DNA from: Thermoplasmata archaeon
GTDB taxonomy: Archaea > Thermoplasmatota > Thermoplasmata > Lutacidiplasmatales > UBA184
Assembly: GCA_035656275.1 (NCBI GenBank)
Contig: DASRSW010000070.1
Location: 3,026 to 67,025, forward strand
Reading direction: 5' to 3'
Length of the DNA stretch: 64,000 nt
This document shows positions 21,971 to 32,379 of the stretch, piece by piece (position 1 is the first letter of the stretch; the number at the start of each line of letters is the position of its first letter). The translations under genes and the position numbers were made by a program. Under the pieces are notes generated by a model that saw only the letters and a program-made list of their open reading frames with translations, did no database searches and had not been told where the DNA came from.

Positions 21971-21988
21971 GGTCAACGGGGGTTGACC
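21971..21988. promoter_or_regulatory. Dyad GGTCAAC-N4-GTTGACC (GTCAA-N6-TTGAC class) upstream of usp
   Basis: Perfect inverted repeat, 65 nt upstream of the usp ATG, followed after 6 nt by TTTTT (21994-21998). Confidence 0.6.
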
Positions 21989-22052
21989 TGCCCTTTTTGG
22001 GGTCCCGATGAGACCGACGGATGAGAGGGAAGCGATTCGCTGACCTGGACCG

Positions 22053-22487
22053 ATGTTCGACCACATTCTGGTGCCCTATGACGGCTCGGCGAATTCTGAC
22101 CACGCGCTCAGTCTCGCCATCGAGCTAGCCCGGCGCTTCGAGTCGTCGCTGGAACTCGTCAGCGTGGCCCCGCTCGTGGTGCCGCTGGCCGGCAGCCCCA
22201 TGGCCCCGCCGCTCTCCGAGGAGGAGGCGCGCATGTTTCGCGAGGTCCTCGCCCGGGGGCGCCTCAAGGCAGAGAAGGCAGGGCTCAGCCACGTCGCGAC
22301 GACGTTCCGCGAGGGGAACGTGGTCGAGGAGCTCCTGAACCACGTGGACCGGGTGAAGCCCGACCTCGTCGTAGTCGGGGCGCGGGGCCTCTCCCGTTTT
22401 CAGCGGCTCCTGATGGGGAGCGTTTCGTCCGCGCTGGTGAGCCATCTCAAAGTGCCGGTCCTCGTGGACCACCTCGGTCCGCGGTAG
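22053..22487 (+). CDS. Universal stress protein (UspA family)
   Basis: 144-aa ORF: MFDHILVPYDGS...PDLVVVGARGLSRFQRLLMGSVSSALVSHLKVPVLV. Confidence 0.9.
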   Translation: MFDHILVPYDGSANSDHALSLAIELARRFESSLELVSVAPLVVPLAGSPMAPPLSEEEARMFREVLARGRLKAEKAGLSHVATTFREGNVVEELLNHVDRVKPDLVVVGARGLSRFQRLLMGSVSSALVSHLKVPVLVDHLGPR

Positions 22488-22496
22488 CCCGTCAGC

Positions 22497-24224
22497 TTAC
22501 CAGCCGGTCGGGTGGCCTCGGTTCTCATCGTCGAGCCACTTCTGTAGCGGCGCGAAGTACTCCAGCAGGGCGCTCGCGTCCATCCGGCGCTCGCCCGTGG
22601 CCACCGCGAGAGCGTCCGGCCAGGGGCGGCTCTGGCCCATCTCGAGCATCGTCCGGAGCCGGTCCCCCGCCGCCCGAGAACCGTAGATCGACGTTCGGTG
22701 GAGCGGAAGGGAGCCGCCCACCTCGCGTACGAGGGCCCGATGGAACTGGAACTGGAGGATGTGCGCGAGAAAGTAGCGCATGTACGGCACGTTCGCCGGG
22801 ACGTGGAATTTGGCTCCGGGGTCGAACTCCTCCTCCCCGCGGGGGACGGGCGGGGCGACCCCCTGATAGGCTTGTCGCAGCTCCCACCAGGTTCGATTGT
22901 ACTCGGACGGAGGGATCTCCCCCGCGAACACCTTCCAACGCCACTGGTCGATGAGGAGGCCGAACGGAAGGAAGGCGATCTTCTCCAGCGCGGTCGAGAG
23001 GAGCAGGCGAAGGTCGGCTTCCGCCCCCGGGGGACGCTCCACGAGCCCGACGCGGGCGAGGTACTCGGGAGTCACCGAGAGGGCGATGGCGTCGCCGATC
23101 GCCTCGTGAAAGCCGTCGTGCGCCCCATCTCGGAAGAGGTACGGCTGGTGGGCGTACGCCCGTTGGTAGTAGTTGTGACCGAGCTCGTGGTGGATCGTCT
23201 GAAAGTCCTCGCCGGTCGTCTCGATGCACATCTTGATCCGCAGGTCCTCCACGAAGTCAAGGTCCCAGGCGCTGGCATGGCAGACGACGTCCCGGTCCCG
23301 GGGTTTGGTGAACATCGAGCGCTGCCAGAAGGTGGCGGGAAGCGCGGGAAGGCCCAGGGAGACGAAGAATCCCTCGCCGAAGCGGACCATCCCTACGGGA
23401 TCGACCCCCTTCGCGTGCAGGGCCGCGGTGAGGTCGACGGCGGCCCCGTCCCCCTCGGGCAGCAGTCGGGGGAGCAGATACTCCCAGCTCTGGGCCCACA
23501 TGTTCCCGAGGAGATGGGCGGGGATCGGCCCGCGAGGTGGCACGAGCTCGGGCCCGAGTTCCTCCCCGAGGCGGCGGCGCACGTAGGCGTGTAGGGCGAC
23601 ATAGAGGGGCCGGACCTGCTCCCAAAGGCGCTCGACCTCGCGGGCAAACGCCTCGGCTCCCATGTCGTACTTCGACCGCCACATCGCTCCGGTGTCGTCG
23701 AACCCGAGCTCCCGCGAGCCCTGATTCGACAACTCGACGTAGCGTGCGAACGGCTGTCGCATCGACCGTCCGATGGCATGCCACCCCGCCCAGACGTCGA
23801 GGAGCAGCTTCGGGTCCCGCCGTTCCGCGAGGAGTCGGCTCAGCCCCTGCAAGTCGAGCGGGGCGGATTCCCCCGTTGGCGTGTAGCTGCCGCGCCCGTA
23901 CACCCCGGTCATCGACGCGACGAGGGTGGTCAGCTCCTCGGCCGTCCGGGGGTCGGAGGGGGCGATCAGCGGAAGGGACAGCTTCAGCAGCTGAAGCTTG
24001 CGCGCGGCCATCTCAGAAAGGGGGTGCGATTCAAAGGTCCTTCCCTCCTGGACCGCCCGCACGGTCGCCTGGATGTAGCGCGCGGAAGCGCGCGCCGAGA
24101 GCGTTTCGGTCTCGGGGGTGATGAATGTGGCGTAGACCCACTCCGCCTGCTGGGTTTCGCGGGCGAGGTCGAGGAGCTGTTGTTCGAGAGTCTCGAGGAA
24201 CTGCTCCGGTGTCCGGTCGGTCAT
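22497..24224 (-). CDS. Peptidase family M2 (angiotensin-converting-enzyme-like peptidyl-dipeptidase)
   Basis: Zinc motif HHELGHNYY plus the downstream FHEAIGDAIALSV, near-identical to the ACE HEMGH/EAIGD signature. Also FWQRSMFTKP and VCHASAWD. No signal peptide is evident. Confidence 0.85.
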   Translation of the reverse strand: MTDRTPEQFLETLEQQLLDLARETQQAEWVYATFITPETETLSARASARYIQATVRAVQEGRTFESHPLSEMAARKLQLLKLSLPLIAPSDPRTAEELTTLVASMTGVYGRGSYTPTGESAPLDLQGLSRLLAERRDPKLLLDVWAGWHAIGRSMRQPFARYVELSNQGSRELGFDDTGAMWRSKYDMGAEAFAREVERLWEQVRPLYVALHAYVRRRLGEELGPELVPPRGPIPAHLLGNMWAQSWEYLLPRLLPEGDGAAVDLTAALHAKGVDPVGMVRFGEGFFVSLGLPALPATFWQRSMFTKPRDRDVVCHASAWDLDFVEDLRIKMCIETTGEDFQTIHHELGHNYYQRAYAHQPYLFRDGAHDGFHEAIGDAIALSVTPEYLARVGLVERPPGAEADLRLLLSTALEKIAFLPFGLLIDQWRWKVFAGEIPPSEYNRTWWELRQAYQGVAPPVPRGEEEFDPGAKFHVPANVPYMRYFLAHILQFQFHRALVREVGGSLPLHRTSIYGSRAAGDRLRTMLEMGQSRPWPDALAVATGERRMDASALLEYFAPLQKWLDDENRGHPTGW

Positions 24225-24254
24225 CGGCTCGGCACCGGGAGGTCGGGGGGCTTA

Positions 24255-25313
24255 TCAACTCCCGCCCGGCGGCCCTCCGCGGTAGGGCCCTTCCGAGTAG
24301 AGCCAGCGGCGCTCTGGAAGGCGGCCGTCGTTCGCCTCCACGTGGTCGAGGAGCTCCACGACCTCCTCCCCGGGCGGAGTGAGGCGATAGCGGGTGCCCA
24401 CCAGCTCCACCAGACCGGCCACCACGAGATGCTCGAGGTACAAGCGGGTTCGACCCGGGACTCCCTGGGCCTCCGCCTCTCCCGAAAGGGCCCTGAGCTC
24501 GAGCTCACGGCCCTCAAGCCGCCGAAGGATCTCGCGACGCTGGGGGCCCTGGGCCCCGTGCAACCCCGCCGGCACCTTCCCACCCCGGAGGGCCTGCCAG
24601 AGGGCCAGGAGGTCCGGCGTCGTGAACAGCCGGCGGTCCGCGATCGCGAGCACGGGCGCCGTCTCGCCAAGGCGAACTCCGACGCTCCTCGCGAGGCTGA
24701 CCAGTGCGGCCGGCTCCGGCAGCGCGGAATCCGACCACCCAAAGTGCAACACCGCGGCCTTCGACGCTCTGTCCGGGTAACTCGTCTCGCTCGTCGAGGA
24801 CCGGCCGCCGTCGGAGAGGTCGAATCGCCGCGAGGCGCCGTCCGTCCAGTCATCGACCGGATCGCCCCAGAACTCGGTCTCCGCGCTGGGAGCGTCTTGC
24901 CACGACTTTGGCACCCGAGAGGCGTCCCACGGTGGCGCGACCTTGAGTCCGAGCGCGAGGTCCTCCTCCACCAGCCGAAGGACCCACAATACCTGGTCGA
25001 CCTGGAACGGCTTTCCGATGACATTGAACGCGCGGTGGCGGAGGCTGCTGGCGATGGCGATCTCGGAGGGCTGGCCTGTCAAGATCACGGAGCGGACCCC
25101 CGGCCAGCGGGACGACACCTCGTCGAGGAGGACCGTGCCCGACTTGCGGGGCATCCTCAGGTCCGTCAGGAGCACGTCGTACCAGCGAGCGCGGAGGGCC
25201 GTCACGGCGGCGTCCGCCGAAGGGACGGCTAGCACCTCGTGGCCCTCGTCCGAGAGGAGCGCGGCCAACTCCACGCGGAAGATCTCGTCATCGTCTGCGA
25301 CTAGGATTCGCAT
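24255..25313 (-). CDS. Response regulator (receiver domain) with C-terminal winged-helix domain
   Basis: MRILVADDDEIFR...DVLLTDLRMPRKSG (phospho-acceptor Asp). The C-terminus (ILRRLEGRELELRALSGE...YLEHLVVAGLVELVGTRYRLTPPG) is wHTH-like. Start placed at ATG 25313, supported by tttctaat about 30 nt upstream, which lies inside the longer ORF. Confidence 0.8.
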   Translation of the reverse strand: MRILVADDDEIFRVELAALLSDEGHEVLAVPSADAAVTALRARWYDVLLTDLRMPRKSGTVLLDEVSSRWPGVRSVILTGQPSEIAIASSLRHRAFNVIGKPFQVDQVLWVLRLVEEDLALGLKVAPPWDASRVPKSWQDAPSAETEFWGDPVDDWTDGASRRFDLSDGGRSSTSETSYPDRASKAAVLHFGWSDSALPEPAALVSLARSVGVRLGETAPVLAIADRRLFTTPDLLALWQALRGGKVPAGLHGAQGPQRREILRRLEGRELELRALSGEAEAQGVPGRTRLYLEHLVVAGLVELVGTRYRLTPPGEEVVELLDHVEANDGRLPERRWLYSEGPYRGGPPGGS

Positions 25314-25541
25314 CCGTCGTGCTCCTCGGTGACGATGGAAATCATCCTTCGGTCGATTAGAAACCTTGCCCACCCCGAGGGACAGCGGATTCCGCCTCCC
25401 GGGGACGCGGGCCTTTCAGCGAGGCGACGGCCGCGGTCGCTCGGGACCTCCCGCCCTGTCGCGACGACGCTGGCGCGCGGGAGGGCGGCGGGGCGGGGGA
25501 GAGGGCTAATAGGGCGCCGTGATAGTCCTTAACACGGGTCG

Positions 25542-25856
25542 ATGCCGCTCTTCATGACCCAATTCACGTACACTTCGGAAGGCTGGAACTCGCTCGTCCG
25601 AAATCCACAGGACCGGACCCGAGCGTTCGCCGAGCTGTTTCAACGGATGGGGGGGAAGCTCCTCAGCCACTACCTTTGCTTCGGAGACTACGATAGCCTC
25701 CTCATCGCGGAAGCTCCGAACGAGACGGTCATGACGAGCGCGCTTCTCGCGGTGATCGCAGACGGCCATGTCAAGGACATGCGCACCACCGTCCTCCTGA
25801 CGTCCGAACAGGGGGTCGAGGCGATGCGGAAGGCCGCGGGGCGCCCGCCGGCCTAA
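25542..25856 (+). CDS. GYD domain protein
   Basis: 104-aa ORF with MTQFTYTSEGW...YLCFGDYDSLLIAEAP (GYD signature). Confidence 0.8.
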   Translation: MPLFMTQFTYTSEGWNSLVRNPQDRTRAFAELFQRMGGKLLSHYLCFGDYDSLLIAEAPNETVMTSALLAVIADGHVKDMRTTVLLTSEQGVEAMRKAAGRPPA

Positions 25857-25902
25857 CCGACCCCGCCGACAGGGGGAGGAGTTATCTTTCCCGGCATCTC
25901 GA

Positions 25903-26493
25903 TTGCGCGGTACTGCTGTGTCCCCCTCAACGCGCGCGCCCGGTCGCCGGGCCCGGACCGCGTCCGCCCGCTCGTCTCGGACCACGGAGGGCCCGGACGG
26001 ACCCGACCGCAGCCTCGGATTCTATGCCTTCCACGTGCGCGACGTCATGACCCGCAAGGTCGTGACGGTCGGGGCGAGCGATTCCCTCGAAGAGGCGGCG
26101 CGGCGCATGGTCACCGCCCGGGTCTCGGGGCTCCCGGTGCTGGGGCCGAACGCGCGGCTGGTGGGCGTCGTGAGCCAGAAGGACATCGTCCGGCTCCTCA
26201 ACGCAAGGGCGGGCCTCACGGTGCCGCGCGGGCTCTTTGACCTCCTGCTCGACGAGCGGACCGGGGAGACCTCCGAGATCGCGGCGGCGGCCCGGCGGGT
26301 CTTGGACCGCGCTCGCGTTCGCGAGGCGATGAGCCGGCCCGCCATCTCCGTCGGCGCGGACACCCCGCTGGACGAGGCGATCGGACTCCTCATCTCGAAC
26401 AAGATCAACCGGCTCCCCGTGGTGGCCGCCGGTCAGGTGGTCGGGATCGTGACCCGCCACGACCTCCTCGCCGGCGTGAGCGAATCCCTCTGA
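25903..26493 (+). CDS. CBS-domain pair protein
   Basis: Two CBS motifs (VRDVMTRKVVTV...LPVL...GVVSQKDIVR; VREAMSRPAISV...INRLPVV...GIVTRHDLL). The start is uncertain: TTG 25903, GTG 25918 (about 30 nt after the TATA-like gttatctttcc at 25881) or GTG 26035. Confidence 0.75.
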   Translation: MRGTAVSPSTRAPGRRARTASARSSRTTEGPDGPDRSLGFYAFHVRDVMTRKVVTVGASDSLEEAARRMVTARVSGLPVLGPNARLVGVVSQKDIVRLLNARAGLTVPRGLFDLLLDERTGETSEIAAAARRVLDRARVREAMSRPAISVGADTPLDEAIGLLISNKINRLPVVAAGQVVGIVTRHDLLAGVSESL

Positions 26494-26511
26494 CCCTGGG
26501 CTGGAGCCCTT

Positions 26512-26529
26512 CGTCAAGTGCAATTGACG
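26512..26529. promoter_or_regulatory. Dyad CGTCAA-N6-TTGACG in the convergent CBS / RNase spacer
   Basis: Perfect inverted repeat, followed after 7 nt by TTAATGA (26536-26542). There is no annotated downstream gene. Confidence 0.5.
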
Positions 26530-26660
26530 AGGCGCTTAATGACGGGCCCGAGGTGGGATTCAGCGGGACTGATGCGCCGGCGGATTCCGAACATGGAGTC
26601 CGACAGGAGGGACCCGGTGCATCAGTCTCACGACACTGAACGGGGCCGGGGAGCTCGCGC

Positions 26661-28259
26661 CTAGAGCTCGAGGGGCTCCCCGGCCCGAAGGAGACGTACT
26701 TTCGCCCCTTCCGGTCCGAGGATCTTCTGGTAACGCCCCGGCGTCTCCGAGTGGACGGGGACGATGACGCGGGCCTGGGCGCGTCGCACAAGGTCGATGA
26801 GCTCGGATTCGGTCGCATGTCCCGAGGCGTGGTACCCCGGTTCGAACTGCGGCCGCCCGTCGGCCGGGTCGACCCGGAACCCGACCTGGTGGAGCCCGGC
26901 CCAGGCGATCCATGCCTGGAGCCGCACGAAGTCGAACTCCTGCTCTTCCCCGTGGGCCTCGCTCGAGGAGTAGAGCCACAGCCCACCGGTCGTGGCGCGG
27001 CGGAGGTCGACCAGGTCGTTCGCATCAAAGAAGCTGAAGCAGAGCACGACGCGCCCCGGGGCCGCGATGATCTCGGCGGCGTCCATCGAGGCATCGGGGT
27101 ACGCCGCCTCGATACGCTCCTGCCAGGCCAGCGGCTGGCGGACGCTCGGCTCCTTCCATATCCGCATTCCCCCCGGCCCGAAGTCGACCGGGACACTGGG
27201 GTCTACGTGCCGCAGCAGATGGAGGAGATAGGCGTCCTTCGCGGTCACGACGAGCTGCCGGTCGCTCTCCCGGGCGACTTCGCGGAACGTCGTCAACCGC
27301 TCGATGTTCCGGGGGCCGAAGTCGGCGATCACCAGCCGGCCCCCGTACTCGCGGACCTTGGCTGTCGCATTCGCCCGTACCTCCGCCTCACTGGTCTGCG
27401 GGGGAAGGTGGTCGGCGTCGCTCCGCCGCAATCGCGTGCCCTCCACCAGAAGGACATCGGGGTGGCGGAGCTCCATCGCGCGGAGGAACGCCTCCGTCTC
27501 CCTCCCCCGCGCCCCGTGGAAGCGGACGTCGCCCGTGTAGGCGACGCGGGCCCCGTCCACGTCCAGGACGAACGCCGCCGAGCCGAGCAGCGAGTGGTCC
27601 ACCGGGAAGCTCTCGATCCGGAACGCCCGGGTCACCGGGTCCCCCGCCGCGCTCGCGGGGTCCGGCCCCTCAAACTCGCCGTGCCGAGCCGGGGGCGCCC
27701 GCAGCGCCTCGACGAGGCCGCTCGTGAATTCCCCGAAAAGGTGGAACGCGCGTCGAGAGCGGGGGCCCTTGCGCTCGGTCGCAAGGAGGCCGTCGCCCCG
27801 GTCCACCCTCGGGGTGTAGTAGGCGAACTCGGTCGTGACATCCGACTTGCCGGACTCCTGCACCGCGCGAAGCGTGGCCACCGACGCCGGGGTGGCGTAG
27901 ATCGGGATCGTGGGATCCAGGAACGCGAGCGCACCGCAGTGGTCGAGGTGGGCGTGGGTCAACAGGACCGCGGCAGGGGCTTCGCCGGGGAAATCGGCGT
28001 CTCCGCGAGGGAAGTCGGTCGTCGGCAGCAGATCCGGGCGGTAAAGCCCGCGCCGCTCGGGAAGCAGCCCCACCGCGAGGAGGTCAGTGATCCCGCGGGC
28101 CGGCCGAGGGTGGAGGAACTCCTCGTAGTACTGGCCCATCCGTTTGTAGTTCGTCCCGAAGTCGAGCAGGAGCCCGGCCGACCCGGTGTCCAGAAGGATC
28201 TTCGTCCCCCCGACGCTCGACTCTCCGTCGAGGACCGTCAATCGCGACGCCGAGGGCAT
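26661..28259 (-). CDS. MBL-fold beta-CASP ribonuclease (RNase J-like)
   Basis: Metallo-beta-lactamase motif LLTHAHLDHCG. Beta-CASP motifs TGDVRFHG, YHASGHA and VPVHSE. Confidence 0.75.
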   Translation of the reverse strand: MPSASRLTVLDGESSVGGTKILLDTGSAGLLLDFGTNYKRMGQYYEEFLHPRPARGITDLLAVGLLPERRGLYRPDLLPTTDFPRGDADFPGEAPAAVLLTHAHLDHCGALAFLDPTIPIYATPASVATLRAVQESGKSDVTTEFAYYTPRVDRGDGLLATERKGPRSRRAFHLFGEFTSGLVEALRAPPARHGEFEGPDPASAAGDPVTRAFRIESFPVDHSLLGSAAFVLDVDGARVAYTGDVRFHGARGRETEAFLRAMELRHPDVLLVEGTRLRRSDADHLPPQTSEAEVRANATAKVREYGGRLVIADFGPRNIERLTTFREVARESDRQLVVTAKDAYLLHLLRHVDPSVPVDFGPGGMRIWKEPSVRQPLAWQERIEAAYPDASMDAAEIIAAPGRVVLCFSFFDANDLVDLRRATTGGLWLYSSSEAHGEEQEFDFVRLQAWIAWAGLHQVGFRVDPADGRPQFEPGYHASGHATESELIDLVRRAQARVIVPVHSETPGRYQKILGPEGAKVRLLRAGEPLEL

Positions 28260-28309
28260 CCCCGGTTCCGAGCCTCCCGGGGACCATAACTCCTCGGGAC
28301 GGCCGTGCG

Positions 28310-28807
28310 CTAGGTGACGGCGATCCGGTGCTCCGCGGCCTGCCGGGTCTTGGGGATGGTCAAGGTCAACACCCCGGCCTCGAACTTCGCCGCGACCTCC
28401 GTGGCGATCACCGGCTGGGGGAGCTCCAGCGTCCGCTCGAAGCCGCGGTGCGCGCGTTCGCGCAGCACGAACGCGCGCGGGGACGCCGCCTTCTCATCCG
28501 GCACCTCTCCGCGCACTTCCACCCGCTGCCCGACCACTTTGACCGAGACTCGGTCTTTGGAGATGCCTGGAAGGTCGAACCGGGCCTCGTAGGCCGTGCC
28601 GAGGTCCGCCAGGTCGACGGGGGCGAGGGCGAGATCCCGGGAGCGCGCGGAGGGACCGTGGCTTTCCGCCCAAGGGTCGAACATCGACCGGAGGCGGCTG
28701 CGCACGAACCCCAGGTCTTCCTCCATGGCCCGCATCTCAAGTCGGATGTCGTGGAGGAGGTCGGACTCATCGGAGACGGGACGGAGACGCTTCGCTTCGG
28801 TCGCCAT
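28310..28807 (-). CDS. hsp20: Small heat-shock protein (Hsp20/alpha-crystallin)
   Basis: Alpha-crystallin domain: PVDLADLGTAYEARFDLPGISKDRVSVKVV...GFERTLELP...AKFEAGVLTLTIPK. Confidence 0.9.
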   Translation of the reverse strand: MATEAKRLRPVSDESDLLHDIRLEMRAMEEDLGFVRSRLRSMFDPWAESHGPSARSRDLALAPVDLADLGTAYEARFDLPGISKDRVSVKVVGQRVEVRGEVPDEKAASPRAFVLRERAHRGFERTLELPQPVIATEVAAKFEAGVLTLTIPKTRQAAEHRIAVT

Positions 28808-28856
28808 GGCTGCCCCTCAGGCAGGGGAGCATGCGGCGGGAATGCGATAACCCCCC

Positions 28857-28874
28857 GGTCAATCGCGGTTGACC
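28857..28874. promoter_or_regulatory. Dyad GGTCAA-N6-TTGACC in the divergent hsp20 / osmC spacer
   Basis: Perfect inverted repeat. On the hsp20 (minus) side it is followed after 7 nt by TTATCGC (28844-28850), 43 nt upstream of the hsp20 ATG. It ends 35 nt upstream of the osmC ATG. Confidence 0.6.
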
Positions 28875-28908
28875 CAAGGCTCAAGAGCACTGCGCCCGAG
28901 GCCGGGGC

Positions 28909-29331
28909 ATGGAGGCGCACGCCCTCTGGCAAGGGAAGAGCCGCATCGAGCTGAACGACGGACGCGGCCACCGGGTGGTGGTCGACCTTCCGGAGAGCGA
29001 AGGCGGCGAGGACGCGGGAACATCGGGTCTCGAGCTCGCGCTGCTGTCGTTCGCGGCCTGCGTGCTCACGATCTTTCCGCTCGTGGCGCGGCGCCGTCGC
29101 ATCCAGATCGAATCGATGGAACTCGATATGGTCGGTCACCGCGGCCCGCGGGCGCCGACCATCGAGCGTGTGGACGGCACCCTTCGCCTGCGGTCTTCCG
29201 CGACTCCCGAGGAGGCCGAGACCGCGCTCCGACTGACGGTCCGGACGTGCCCGGTGGGGGTTCTTTTTGAGCGCGCCGGCGTGCCGGTCCAACTCCGCCT
29301 CGAGCCGATCGGGGCGCTTGTGACGGCATGA
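28909..29331 (+). CDS. OsmC/Ohr family protein
   Basis: 140-aa ORF with SGLELALLSFAACVLTIF and LTVRTCPV (the two conserved Cys). ATGA overlap with fhs. Confidence 0.75.
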   Translation: MEAHALWQGKSRIELNDGRGHRVVVDLPESEGGEDAGTSGLELALLSFAACVLTIFPLVARRRRIQIESMELDMVGHRGPRAPTIERVDGTLRLRSSATPEEAETALRLTVRTCPVGVLFERAGVPVQLRLEPIGALVTA

Positions 29332-30975: not shown

Positions 30976-30993
30976 CGTCAACCCGGATTGACG
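30976..30993. promoter_or_regulatory. Dyad CGTCAA-N6-TTGACG downstream of fhs
   Basis: Perfect inverted repeat 11 nt after the fhs stop, followed after 7 nt by TCTTGTT. It lies in a 245-bp convergent spacer. Confidence 0.5.
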
Positions 30994-31210
30994 AGCCCCT
31001 CTTGTTCCCGGGGAACTCCGGTCACGGTAGGACGGCGGCCACCAACGGACCGTCGGGCTCTCACTCGATTCGGAGGGCGGGCTTCTCGCGCCTCAATGAC
31101 CGTCGCCGACAGAGTGGGGACCGTCCTGTGGACCGCGGCCGCCGTCTCTAACCCCGGGGGTCGACGCGGGGGAATCCGGCGCTTCCCCGGGCACGCCCGA
31201 GCGTCCGGGT

Positions 31211-31612
31211 CTACGCCGCATTCGGCGACGCAGGTCTACTCTGGACCTCGATCCAGTTCCCGTCCGGGTCCTGGACGAAGCCGATACGGTACCGCGTACC
31301 CTCCGACCATGCGGGGATCGCCGGAGTCGCCCCCAAGGTGAGCAACCGGGCCACCGTCTCGTCCGCATCGGCGACTTCGAGGCCGAGGTGGTCGAGGCCC
31401 TCCCCCGGGGTGTACGGCGTCGCGTAGGGGGATTCCGGTGGGTACCAGTTCAGTTCCAGCTGCTGGTGCGAGACCGGGTCCTCGAGCCCCACGAAGAGGC
31501 CGCCGTGACTCATCTGCCCTCGACCGCGCTCCACGAGGCCCAGTCCCTCGAGATAGAAGCGGAGCGAACGGTCGAGGTCGCGGACACGGATTCCCACGTA
31601 GGCGAGCGTCAT
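31211..31612 (-). CDS. VOC family protein (glyoxalase I-like)
   Basis: 133-aa ORF: AYVGIRVRDLDRSLRFYLEGLGL...HLGLEV...GFVQDPDGNWIEV. Confidence 0.8.
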   Translation of the reverse strand: MTLAYVGIRVRDLDRSLRFYLEGLGLVERGRGQMSHGGLFVGLEDPVSHQQLELNWYPPESPYATPYTPGEGLDHLGLEVADADETVARLLTLGATPAIPAWSEGTRYRIGFVQDPDGNWIEVQSRPASPNAA

Positions 31613-32379
31613 CCCGCGCTCCCGCGACGTGCGGCCCCGACGACCGGGGCCGGGCCTGCGGGAGGTCCCGGCGGTCCCGGCGTCGGCATCACCTCGGGCG
31701 ACGGCTCGGAGTCGGCGTACATCCGCAGGTACGGAAGCACCGCGTCCAGGACCCGGTTCTCGGCTTTCCGCAGGTGTTCCTCAAACGTCGAGCGACTCAC
31801 CCCGGCCCCCCGGGAGAGGATCTCGGTCGTCGTCCGGCGGGGGGAGGAATAGTAGCCGGAGCGGTGCGCGGCGAGGATCGAATCCGTTTGGCGGCCGGTC
31901 AGGTCGGCGAACAGGCTCTGCACCCAGATCGAGGTGGGGAGGGCGCTCAGGGGAAGCTCCCGTTTCTTCAGCAGCTCCGTCGTGCCTCGACCGGTCAGGT
32001 CTCGGAAGACGTCCCGCGTCCGGCGGTCGTCGAGGCTCAAGATCCGGAAATATCCCCACCTGTCCTGGAACACGGAGGGCGGAGACTCGATGCACTCGTT
32101 CTCTTCGGCGATCGTCCAGATGCTCTCGTAGTGCCCACAGGTGCACTCGAGAAGGAACGTGCGTCCCGTGCGGCTGTCGACCCACTCATCGACCACGCGA
32201 CCGGCCGCCCGAATGCCGCGCTCGATGCCGTCGAGCGTGGTTGGCTCCCGTGTCGGTACTTGGAGGAGCTCCCGGTTCCAGACGCACCACATTGAGATGG
32301 GCGTCTCGGGGTATTTCGCGCTCAACTGAATGAACGGGTGGTCGTAACGGGCCCGCAGGGAGATCTCCCAGAGCGACAT
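31609..32379 (-). CDS. HTH_10 (bacterio-opsin-activator-like) DNA-binding protein
   Basis: The C-terminus (LTGRQTDSILAAHRSGYYSSPRRTTTEILSRGAGVSRSTFEEHLRKAENRVL) matches the archaeal Bat-type HTH. Start placed at ATG 32379 (MSLWEISL). 4-nt overlap with the VOC gene. Confidence 0.75.
   Translation of the reverse strand: MSLWEISLRARYDHPFIQLSAKYPETPISMWCVWNRELLQVPTREPTTLDGIERGIRAAGRVVDEWVDSRTGRTFLLECTCGHYESIWTIAEENECIESPPSVFQDRWGYFRILSLDDRRTRDVFRDLTGRGTTELLKKRELPLSALPTSIWVQSLFADLTGRQTDSILAAHRSGYYSSPRRTTTEILSRGAGVSRSTFEEHLRKAENRVLDAVLPYLRMYADSEPSPEVMPTPGPPGPPAGPAPVVGAARRGSAG

Follow-up and report, generated by a model that had tools for sequence, protein, structure and literature searches.

A GTCAA-N6-TTGAC dyad as predicted operator of a stress-type regulon in uncultured soil Thermoplasmata

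Dyad copies and neighbouring genes in the window

The inverted repeat GTCAA-N6-TTGAC (the dyad) occurs four times in a 64-kb stretch of DNA (the window), which is part of contig C70 of the genome assembly of a Thermoplasmata archaeon (GCA_035656275.1, G000 in the following; 2.23 Mb, 95 contigs, 68% GC). Two of the copies precede genes for a universal stress protein (usp), a small heat-shock protein (hsp20) and an OsmC-like peroxiredoxin (osmC), and comparison with related genomes makes it very probable that uncultured soil Thermoplasmata of one genus-level group share a conserved stress-type regulon with the dyad as a genuine operator. The copies, the TATA-like boxes read from the sequence beside them and the predicted target genes are located as follows, with distances in nucleotides (nt) and protein lengths in amino acids (aa).

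21972..21987, no strand: dyad 1, GTCAACGGGGGTTGAC, exact match; candidate operator of the usp promoter
21994..22000, plus strand: TATA-like box TTTTTGG of usp
22053..22487, plus strand: usp, universal stress protein, 144 aa (Pfam Usp, E = 6.5e-31); predicted target gene
26513..26528, no strand: dyad 2, GTCAAGTGCAATTGAC, exact match; box TTAATGA at 26536-26542, 7 nt after the dyad
28310..28807, minus strand: hsp20, small heat-shock protein, 165 aa (Pfam HSP20, E = 3e-17); predicted target gene
28844..28850, minus strand: TATA-like box TTATCGC of hsp20, 7 nt from dyad 3
28858..28873, no strand: dyad 3, GTCAATCGCGGTTGAC, exact match; candidate central operator of the divergent hsp20/osmC promoters
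28880..28887, plus strand: TATA-like box CTCAAGAG of osmC, 6 nt from dyad 3
28909..29331, plus strand: osmC-like peroxiredoxin gene, 140 aa (Pfam OsmC, E = 2.5e-13); predicted target gene
30977..30992, no strand: dyad 4, GTCAACCCGGATTGAC, exact match; weak box TCTTGTT at 31000-31006, 7 nt after the dyad

These four positions had been given in an earlier note on the same DNA, and none of the copies (0/4) was found inside a coding sequence (CDS). The rough estimate in that note, that far less than one copy per 64 kb is expected by chance, was borne out by 100 dinucleotide shuffles, which gave an expectation of 0.02 copies and of which none (0/100) reached four. The A/T-rich heptamers described 6-7 nt from each dyad are all in place, with a further box on the osmC side, and the proposed identities of usp, hsp20 and osmC are backed by the Pfam matches.

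At usp, the box TTTTTGG follows dyad 1 after 6 nt and the ATG after 65 nt. The position of this box agrees with an A/T peak 7-11 nt past the dyad edge, which was determined from 126 half-sites of this genome and its relatives. The hsp20/osmC intergenic promoter region is compact (101 bp) and two-sided, with TATA-like boxes 6-7 nt off dyad 3 on either side and the divergent starts of hsp20 and osmC at 50 and 35 nt, respectively. Because the osmC ATG is so close to the dyad, a leaderless transcript is suggested for this gene. The same two-sided layout was seen again in relatives.

The reading of the dyads as gene operators holds for usp and for hsp20/osmC; it does not hold for the copies at 26513 and 30977, which are located between convergent genes and are not followed by a credible gene. 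Dyad 2 is flanked by the 3' ends of a CBS gene (25903-26493, plus strand) and a beta-CASP/MBL gene (26661-28259, minus strand), while dyad 4 lies 11 nt past the stop codon of an FTHFS gene and 218 nt from the 3' end of a convergent glyoxalase gene. A plus-side TATA-like box is present at each of these exact dyads (regions 26513-26700 and 30977-31215). Transcription may begin at these two copies and yield short or antisense RNAs that run into the beta-CASP/MBL gene and the glyoxalase/HTH_10 operon.

Genome-wide distribution, promoter anatomy and target genes

Gene calls made with a codon-usage model assign 75% of the genome to coding and 25% to non-coding DNA. The genome contains 11 exact dyads with a spacing of 6, whereas the remaining spacings between 0 and 14 and the everted arrangement yield 0-3 copies each. 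All of them (11/11) are intergenic, including C48:3233, which was first scored as coding and sits 44 nt upstream of the true ATG. A genome search allowing one mismatch, which the earlier note had proposed as a check, likewise revealed intergenic enrichment, with 26 of 33 sites in non-coding DNA (binomial P = 1e-10 against the non-coding fraction of 25%). The dyad is 16 bp long with half-site centres 11 bp apart, and the ten half-site bases are the only ones common to all copies, spacers and flanks being variable.

The search was extended to relatives, as had also been proposed, with a comparison set of 40 other genomes of the same GTDB genus and 16 genomes of different genera within the order and class. 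The 40 genus genomes contain 134 exact dyads compared to 5 for a reversed control, and no dyad excess was found in the 16 genomes outside the genus. The genus is deep, with orthologous proteins being only about 40% identical. In the close relative L126 (GCA_035632035.1), all three sites of a locus on contig C86 of G000, which is described below, are retained at the same positions (3/3) with conserved half-sites and changed spacers. In G018, an exact dyad is located 60 nt upstream of an hsp20 orthologue with 38% identity; this locus was the only one of nine in the genus search for hsp20 with a dyad (1/9), and the other loci look like other paralogues of the small heat-shock protein (sHSP) family. 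When hsp20 was searched against metagenomes, the matches were limited to two distant sHSPs and one fragment with the same sequence as the window, which gave no close-range footprint of the window promoters.

At nearly every site, the order toward the adjacent gene is dyad, 4-8 nt of G+C-rich sequence, TATA-like box and start codon, with the G+C-rich segment at the position where the B recognition element (BRE) would be. Within the 126 half-sites, A/T content reaches 63%, its maximum, at 10-11 nt past the dyad edge (background 25-30%), and C or G flanks the half-site in 84% of cases. On 56% of the gene-facing sides, an A/T-rich 7-mer begins 3-10 nt (mostly 4-8) off the dyad edge; the figure is 22% for the non-facing sides and 10% for random positions. 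The dyad is located upstream of the TATA-like box at every gene-facing site examined and never over the TATA box or the expected transcript start. The dyads are phased to these boxes, as expected from their proposed placement on the BRE side. Start codons cluster at 34-38 nt, which is a leaderless spacing, and at 42-48 nt from the dyad, and the dyad is often placed such that it could serve divergent genes on both sides. The archaeal TATA box is centred near -27. Because the boxes found here are taken to be centred likewise, the dyad would span about -37 to -52, directly upstream of the BRE/TATA region. Judged from these distances, it appears to serve mostly leaderless or short-leader genes, often two divergent ones at once.

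In addition to usp and hsp20/osmC, exact sites in this genome belong to a CBS-pair gene, an ABC ATPase gene, a membrane protein gene and three cupredoxin-like membrane paralogues. One-mismatch sites precede a second CBS gene and genes for POR-gamma, Amt, DsrE, TusA, DoxX and a thioredoxin-like protein. In relatives, 56 dyad-adjacent genes from 14 genomes were surveyed. CBS proteins, the cupredoxin-like family, a 230-aa family, GNAT, Usp, Hsp20, Zn-ADH and amino-acid permeases are represented by 3-5 members each, and thermosome, ferritin/Dps, AhpD-like CMD, AHSA1 and glyoxalase proteins by two members each. Usp genes with a dyad were found in two other species (L011, L051). The predicted target set is one of chaperone, redox and general-stress genes, and the stress-regulon operator proposed in the earlier note is further supported by other species, in which hsp20, usp, thermosome, CBS, Dps, OsmC and AhpD-type genes again have the dyad upstream.

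Two of the target families have no Pfam match. The cupredoxin-like proteins are membrane-anchored, consist of about 200 aa and have a C-terminal C-x3-C...M motif. All three paralogues of this genome (C32:372-1037, minus strand; C48:3278-3842, plus strand; C86:12106-12717, minus strand) have an exact dyad, and with members in L015, L016, L025 and L126 (L126:8787-9380) this is, jointly with two others, the most frequent target family. The second family, of about 230 aa, was found at L027:2053-2832, L034:1278-1964, L041, L044:2044-2736 and L052; in three of these five species its gene is divergent from a CBS-pair gene, with one shared dyad between them. As an aid to annotation, genes that are repeatedly linked to the dyad, among them those of the two families and the pseudo-receiver gene described below, become candidates for stress proteins.

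The kinase-linked locus and the candidate regulator

The dyad is clustered around genes for a certain type of response regulator, which consists of a receiver domain (REC), a central domain and a domain with a winged helix-turn-helix (wHTH). Two paralogues with 32% identity over their full length are encoded in this genome, one in the window and one at C86:8605-9663; the Pfam search located further receiver genes on contigs C73 and C3 and perhaps on C18. Seven of the 11 exact dyads of this genome are located at most 7 kb from one of the two paralogues. Across the genomes, 12 exact dyads were counted in 548 kb around regulator genes compared to 1.1 expected (about 11-fold; Poisson P = 2e-9), and the targets next to these dyads differ among species.

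In the genus, many regulator genes are part of a module with the order pseudo-receiver gene, TATA box and dyad, gene for a soluble PAS-PAS-HisKA-HATPase kinase, sometimes a gene for a DUF981 protein, and regulator gene. In this genome, the locus on contig C86 has the following features.

C86:6200-7650, minus strand: kinase gene, inverted relative to the usual module order
C86:7721, no strand: dyad variant GTGGACTCGCGTTGAC
C86:7773-8158, plus strand: pseudo-receiver gene
C86:8203, no strand: exact dyad
C86:8605-9663: regulator gene
C86:9680, no strand: exact dyad, followed by a CBS gene

The PAS-PAS-HisKA-HATPase_c architecture was found in seven proteins from seven species, with the HATPase_c match of this genome at C86:6242-6562. 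The pseudo-receiver, with the sequence VLVVGETPSLGR..., is a protein of 115-128 aa that matches Response_reg weakly and is devoid of the acidic phospho-acceptor pocket. It is conserved in this genome and 13 relatives, and its gene is always divergent from the PAS kinase gene; in most of 17 loci examined, it starts 35-38 nt from the dyad with a TATA-like box in between. The intergenic region of pseudo-receiver and kinase gene contains a dyad with at most one mismatch in 17 and with at most two mismatches in 20 of the 26 scorable kinase-linked loci. The pseudo-receiver may be a feedback partner of the kinase.

Between the exact dyad at C86:8203 with its TATA box and the TATA box of the regulator gene itself, there is a stretch of about 380 nt (C86:8219-8600). 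An open reading frame (ORF) following this dyad was considered and rejected, as the stretch has no coding signal. Most of it is missing in L126, where the dyad is only 76 nt from the start codon of the regulator gene. At L126:540-1727, genes for a CsoR-type metal repressor (Trns_repr_metal) and a cation-efflux protein adjoin the kinase module.

The response regulator encoded at C86:8605-9663 (352 aa), with a REC, a weakly DUF835-like and a putatively ArsR-type wHTH domain, is probably the protein that binds the dyad. Its receiver matches Response_reg with E = 1e-28 and has the NtrC1 receiver as the closest solved structure; residues D7, D8, D9, D51 and K101 are invariant in 16 homologues. The output domain matches the DUF7347 wHTH with 33.7 bits (cut-off 27.6), with weaker matches near the cut-off to HTH_45, HTH_5 (20.8 vs 22) and HTH_20 (23.0 vs 27). 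Among solved structures, NmtR and ArsR are weakly similar to it (E about 0.01), and no sequence similarity to the solved Phr chain was found at E up to 1. In the predicted model, helix-turn-helix, wing and C-terminal helix follow in the expected order. The central domain, modelled as a Rossmann-like alpha/beta fold, matches DUF835 (PF05763) weakly at C86:9091-9306 (14.7 bits, E = 0.03, cut-off 33.1). A fold search with the regulator model was dominated by receiver-domain matches and added nothing on the other two domains. ArsR-type dimers read two half-sites one helical turn apart, and, from what is known of the family, such a dimer fits the 16-bp inverted repeat.

Homologues of the C86 regulator are encoded in 34 of the 40 genus genomes. 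In the regulator tree, they form the kinase-linked clades A and C (29 genes) and an orphan clade B, and the window paralogue is placed on a very long branch. The recognition helix DDSPK(L/M)(A/S)FH(L/I)R(K/R)L is shared by the kinase-linked clades and the C86 protein and is nearly the same in clade B. Of the 16 relatives outside the genus, in which the dyad shows no enrichment, 15 lack the C-terminal part of the regulator. Genus genomes are free of dyads in four of six cases if they have no regulator and in three of 34 cases if they have one (Fisher P = 0.005, without correction for kinship). Neither G046 nor G052, which are near-complete and devoid of the regulator, has a dyad, or an excess even at one mismatch, unlike G002, G048 and G056, in which an excess is present at one mismatch.

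Two proteins encoded in the window had been named in the earlier note as possible binders. One of them is the window response regulator.

24255..25319, minus strand: response regulator with REC, central domain and divergent wHTH (Response_reg, E = 3e-18; weak HVO_A0261_N and HTH_45)

With this proposal, the right protein family was found, although the protein itself is a divergent paralogue: its recognition helix is quite different, and a search of the 40 genus genomes gave no orthologue. It was thus rejected as conserved binder; it is an orphan, fast-evolving paralogue and a poorer candidate than the C86 protein. A search of a genome collection with this protein yielded receiver-domain matches from bacteria only. 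The other proposal, the HTH_10 protein (31609-32379), was abandoned, as nothing ties it to the motif: there is no dyad in its own promoter, and it does not recur near dyads. A haloarchaeal origin of the DNA, to which high GC and the HTH_10 gene had pointed, was discarded, as the proteins are not acidic and names in databases speak for Thermoplasmata. Between usp and the gene of the window response regulator, a 575-aa protein encoded at 22497-24224 (minus strand) has a full-length match to Peptidase_M2 (E = 2e-214), the family of the angiotensin-converting enzyme, which is unusual for a Thermoplasmata archaeon.

Mode of action, alternatives and comparison with known systems

In the proposed mechanism, the dyad would be bound by a dimer of the response regulator with its NtrC1-like REC, DUF835-like central domain and ArsR-type wHTH. 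The soluble PAS-PAS histidine kinase would phosphorylate this regulator on a cytoplasmic signal, possibly a redox signal. That the signal is intracellular, redox or related, is a speculation suggested by the two cytoplasmic PAS domains of the kinase and the redox-flavoured targets. The phosphorylated regulator would then help TFB and TBP onto weak promoters and activate transcription, and it would also drive the pseudo-receiver gene beside its own kinase gene, resulting in a feedback loop. Activation, rated as moderately likely, is the favoured mode because the site is located upstream of BRE/TATA, as are the activating sites of TrmBL1, and because the TATA-like boxes are weak. Taken as a whole, the explanation by a stress-regulon operator, a response regulator as binder and activation is given moderate confidence.

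Several observations weigh against this explanation, and three alternatives were considered. The first and main alternative, which is rather unlikely, is that the same regulator binds the dyad but represses by sitting against the BRE and keeping TFB off until a stress signal arrives. The inner edge of the dyad is 4-8 nt from the TATA-like box and thus covers or abuts the BRE position, and repressors, Phr and HSR1 among them, make up the majority of characterised archaeal regulators. This is opposed by the consistent location of the site upstream of the TATA box, by the weakness of the boxes (CTCAAGAG, TCTTGTT, GATATGAC), which is expected of activator-dependent promoters, and by the tested case of TrmBL1 in Pyrococcus, in which activation occurs from sites upstream of BRE/TATA and repression from sites downstream (PMC4706686).

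According to the second alternative, the operator is real, and another transcription factor, for instance a small stand-alone wHTH protein or a Phr/HSR1-like one, binds to it, with the kinase module being one of its targets. The link between regulator and dyad is drawn from neighbourhood and co-occurrence among related, non-independent genomes, and signalling genes are often part of stress regulons. Dyads are present without a regulator match in G041 (7 dyads) and G047 (3 dyads), both less than 75% complete, and in G000 the regulator gene is preceded by a TATA box of its own with no dyad next to it. In addition, genomes with only orphan clade-B regulators still have dyads (6 in G007), so that the binder may be another paralogue. 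This alternative is nevertheless improbable: the roughly 11-fold clustering of dyads around regulator genes is accompanied by neighbouring targets that vary by species, G046 and G052 are free of a dyad excess, and no DNA-binding family is among the 25 most frequent (of 50) Pfam families of the 56 dyad-adjacent genes of relatives.

The third alternative, that the dyad has no regulatory role and is either left over from a small mobile or repetitive element or an artefact of intergenic base composition, would account for the two window copies without a target gene, downstream of which neither a credible ORF nor an Rfam match was found, but it can practically be dismissed, given that copies share only the ten half-site bases, that the regions downstream of these two dyads resemble neither each other nor anything else in the genome, that spacing is strict and phase to TATA boxes and start codons fixed, and that the dyad is conserved across species with orthologues only about 40% identical while the reversed control is near zero.

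With the archaea-specific response regulator as predicted activator, chances are about even that this is the first archaeal two-component system with an operator and regulon readable from genomes, which would directly activate hsp20, thermosome, usp, osmC and Dps genes, serve two divergent promoters with one dimer and include feedback by a dyad-driven pseudo-receiver. If true, the archaeal heat-shock and stress response would be under the control of a bacterial-style phosphorelay. Little is known of how two-component systems connect to the transcription machinery in archaea, and the control of heat-shock and stress genes is poorly understood outside Thermococcales and Archaeoglobus. The analysis yields a site of 16 defined base pairs in length, candidates for the regulator and the kinase, and a set of target promoters, all of which are accessible to experiments that use recombinant proteins and synthetic DNA, even without cultures of the organisms.

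Very few archaeal response regulators contain an HTH domain; the Bat type, the LtrR type and FilR1 were named in a 2018 census, in which almost no two-component genes were reported for Thermoplasmata (PMC5847659). Like FilI-FilR1/FilR2 in Methanosaeta (Methanothrix) harundinacea and LtrK-LtrR in Methanococcoides burtonii, the system described here comprises a histidine kinase along with a response regulator that has a (w)HTH domain and presumably controls transcription directly (PMC5847659). FilR1 has the domain order wHTH-DUF1724-REC and LtrR the order HTH-REC (PMC5847659), in contrast to the order REC, DUF835-like domain and putatively ArsR-type wHTH in the Thermoplasmata lineage studied here; moreover, a defined operator of 16 bp and a stress regulon of several genes can be made out from sequence here, unlike for FilI-FilR and LtrK-LtrR. 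The same census lists REC-DUF835 ("inactivated KaiC") regulators for Methanomicrobia and Thermoplasmata, with no DNA-binding role given (PMC5847659). These share with the C86 regulator the N-terminal receiver followed by a Rossmann-like central domain and the archaeal class, but the C86 regulator has in addition a C-terminal wHTH (DUF7347), and its DUF835 match is weak (14.7 vs 33.1 bits).

The TGM sites of TrmBL1 in Pyrococcus furiosus are also palindromes upstream of the core promoter, for which activation was shown in vitro (PMC4706686). TrmBL1 belongs to the TrmB family and is not under two-component control, and its motif and sugar-metabolism regulon are unrelated to those described here. 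In a search of a literature library, no paper was found that ties GTCAA-N6-TTGAC to archaeal regulation, and none that mentions the DUF7347 family.

The operator of HSR1 in Archaeoglobus fulgidus is presumably CTAAC-N5-GTTAG, and the sites of HSR1 and of Phr in Pyrococcus furiosus are taken to overlap the TATA box or transcript start and to mediate repression. The dyad resembles these sites in being a palindrome of 5-nt half-sites in front of hsp20 in a Euryarchaeote, with an ArsR-like wHTH protein as binder, which is a candidate here. It differs from them in its half-sites GTCAA/TTGAC, its 6-nt spacer and its location upstream of BRE/TATA. Phr and HSR1 are furthermore stand-alone proteins and not response regulators, unlike the candidate here. 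The view of the earlier note that the dyad is distinct from both sites was thus correct with respect to sequence, position and regulator type.

Finally, the proposed system is similar to autoregulated bacterial systems of the PhoPQ and OmpR/EnvZ type, which likewise consist of a kinase and a DNA-binding regulator and have their operator both within the cluster of their own genes and before the scattered genes of a regulon; the receiver of the candidate regulator is NtrC1-like. In contrast to these systems, the predicted output domain is an ArsR-type wHTH on an inverted repeat instead of an OmpR, NarL or NtrC domain, the promoters are archaeal TATA/BRE promoters with leaderless mRNAs, and the module's own dyad-driven target would be a pseudo-receiver gene.

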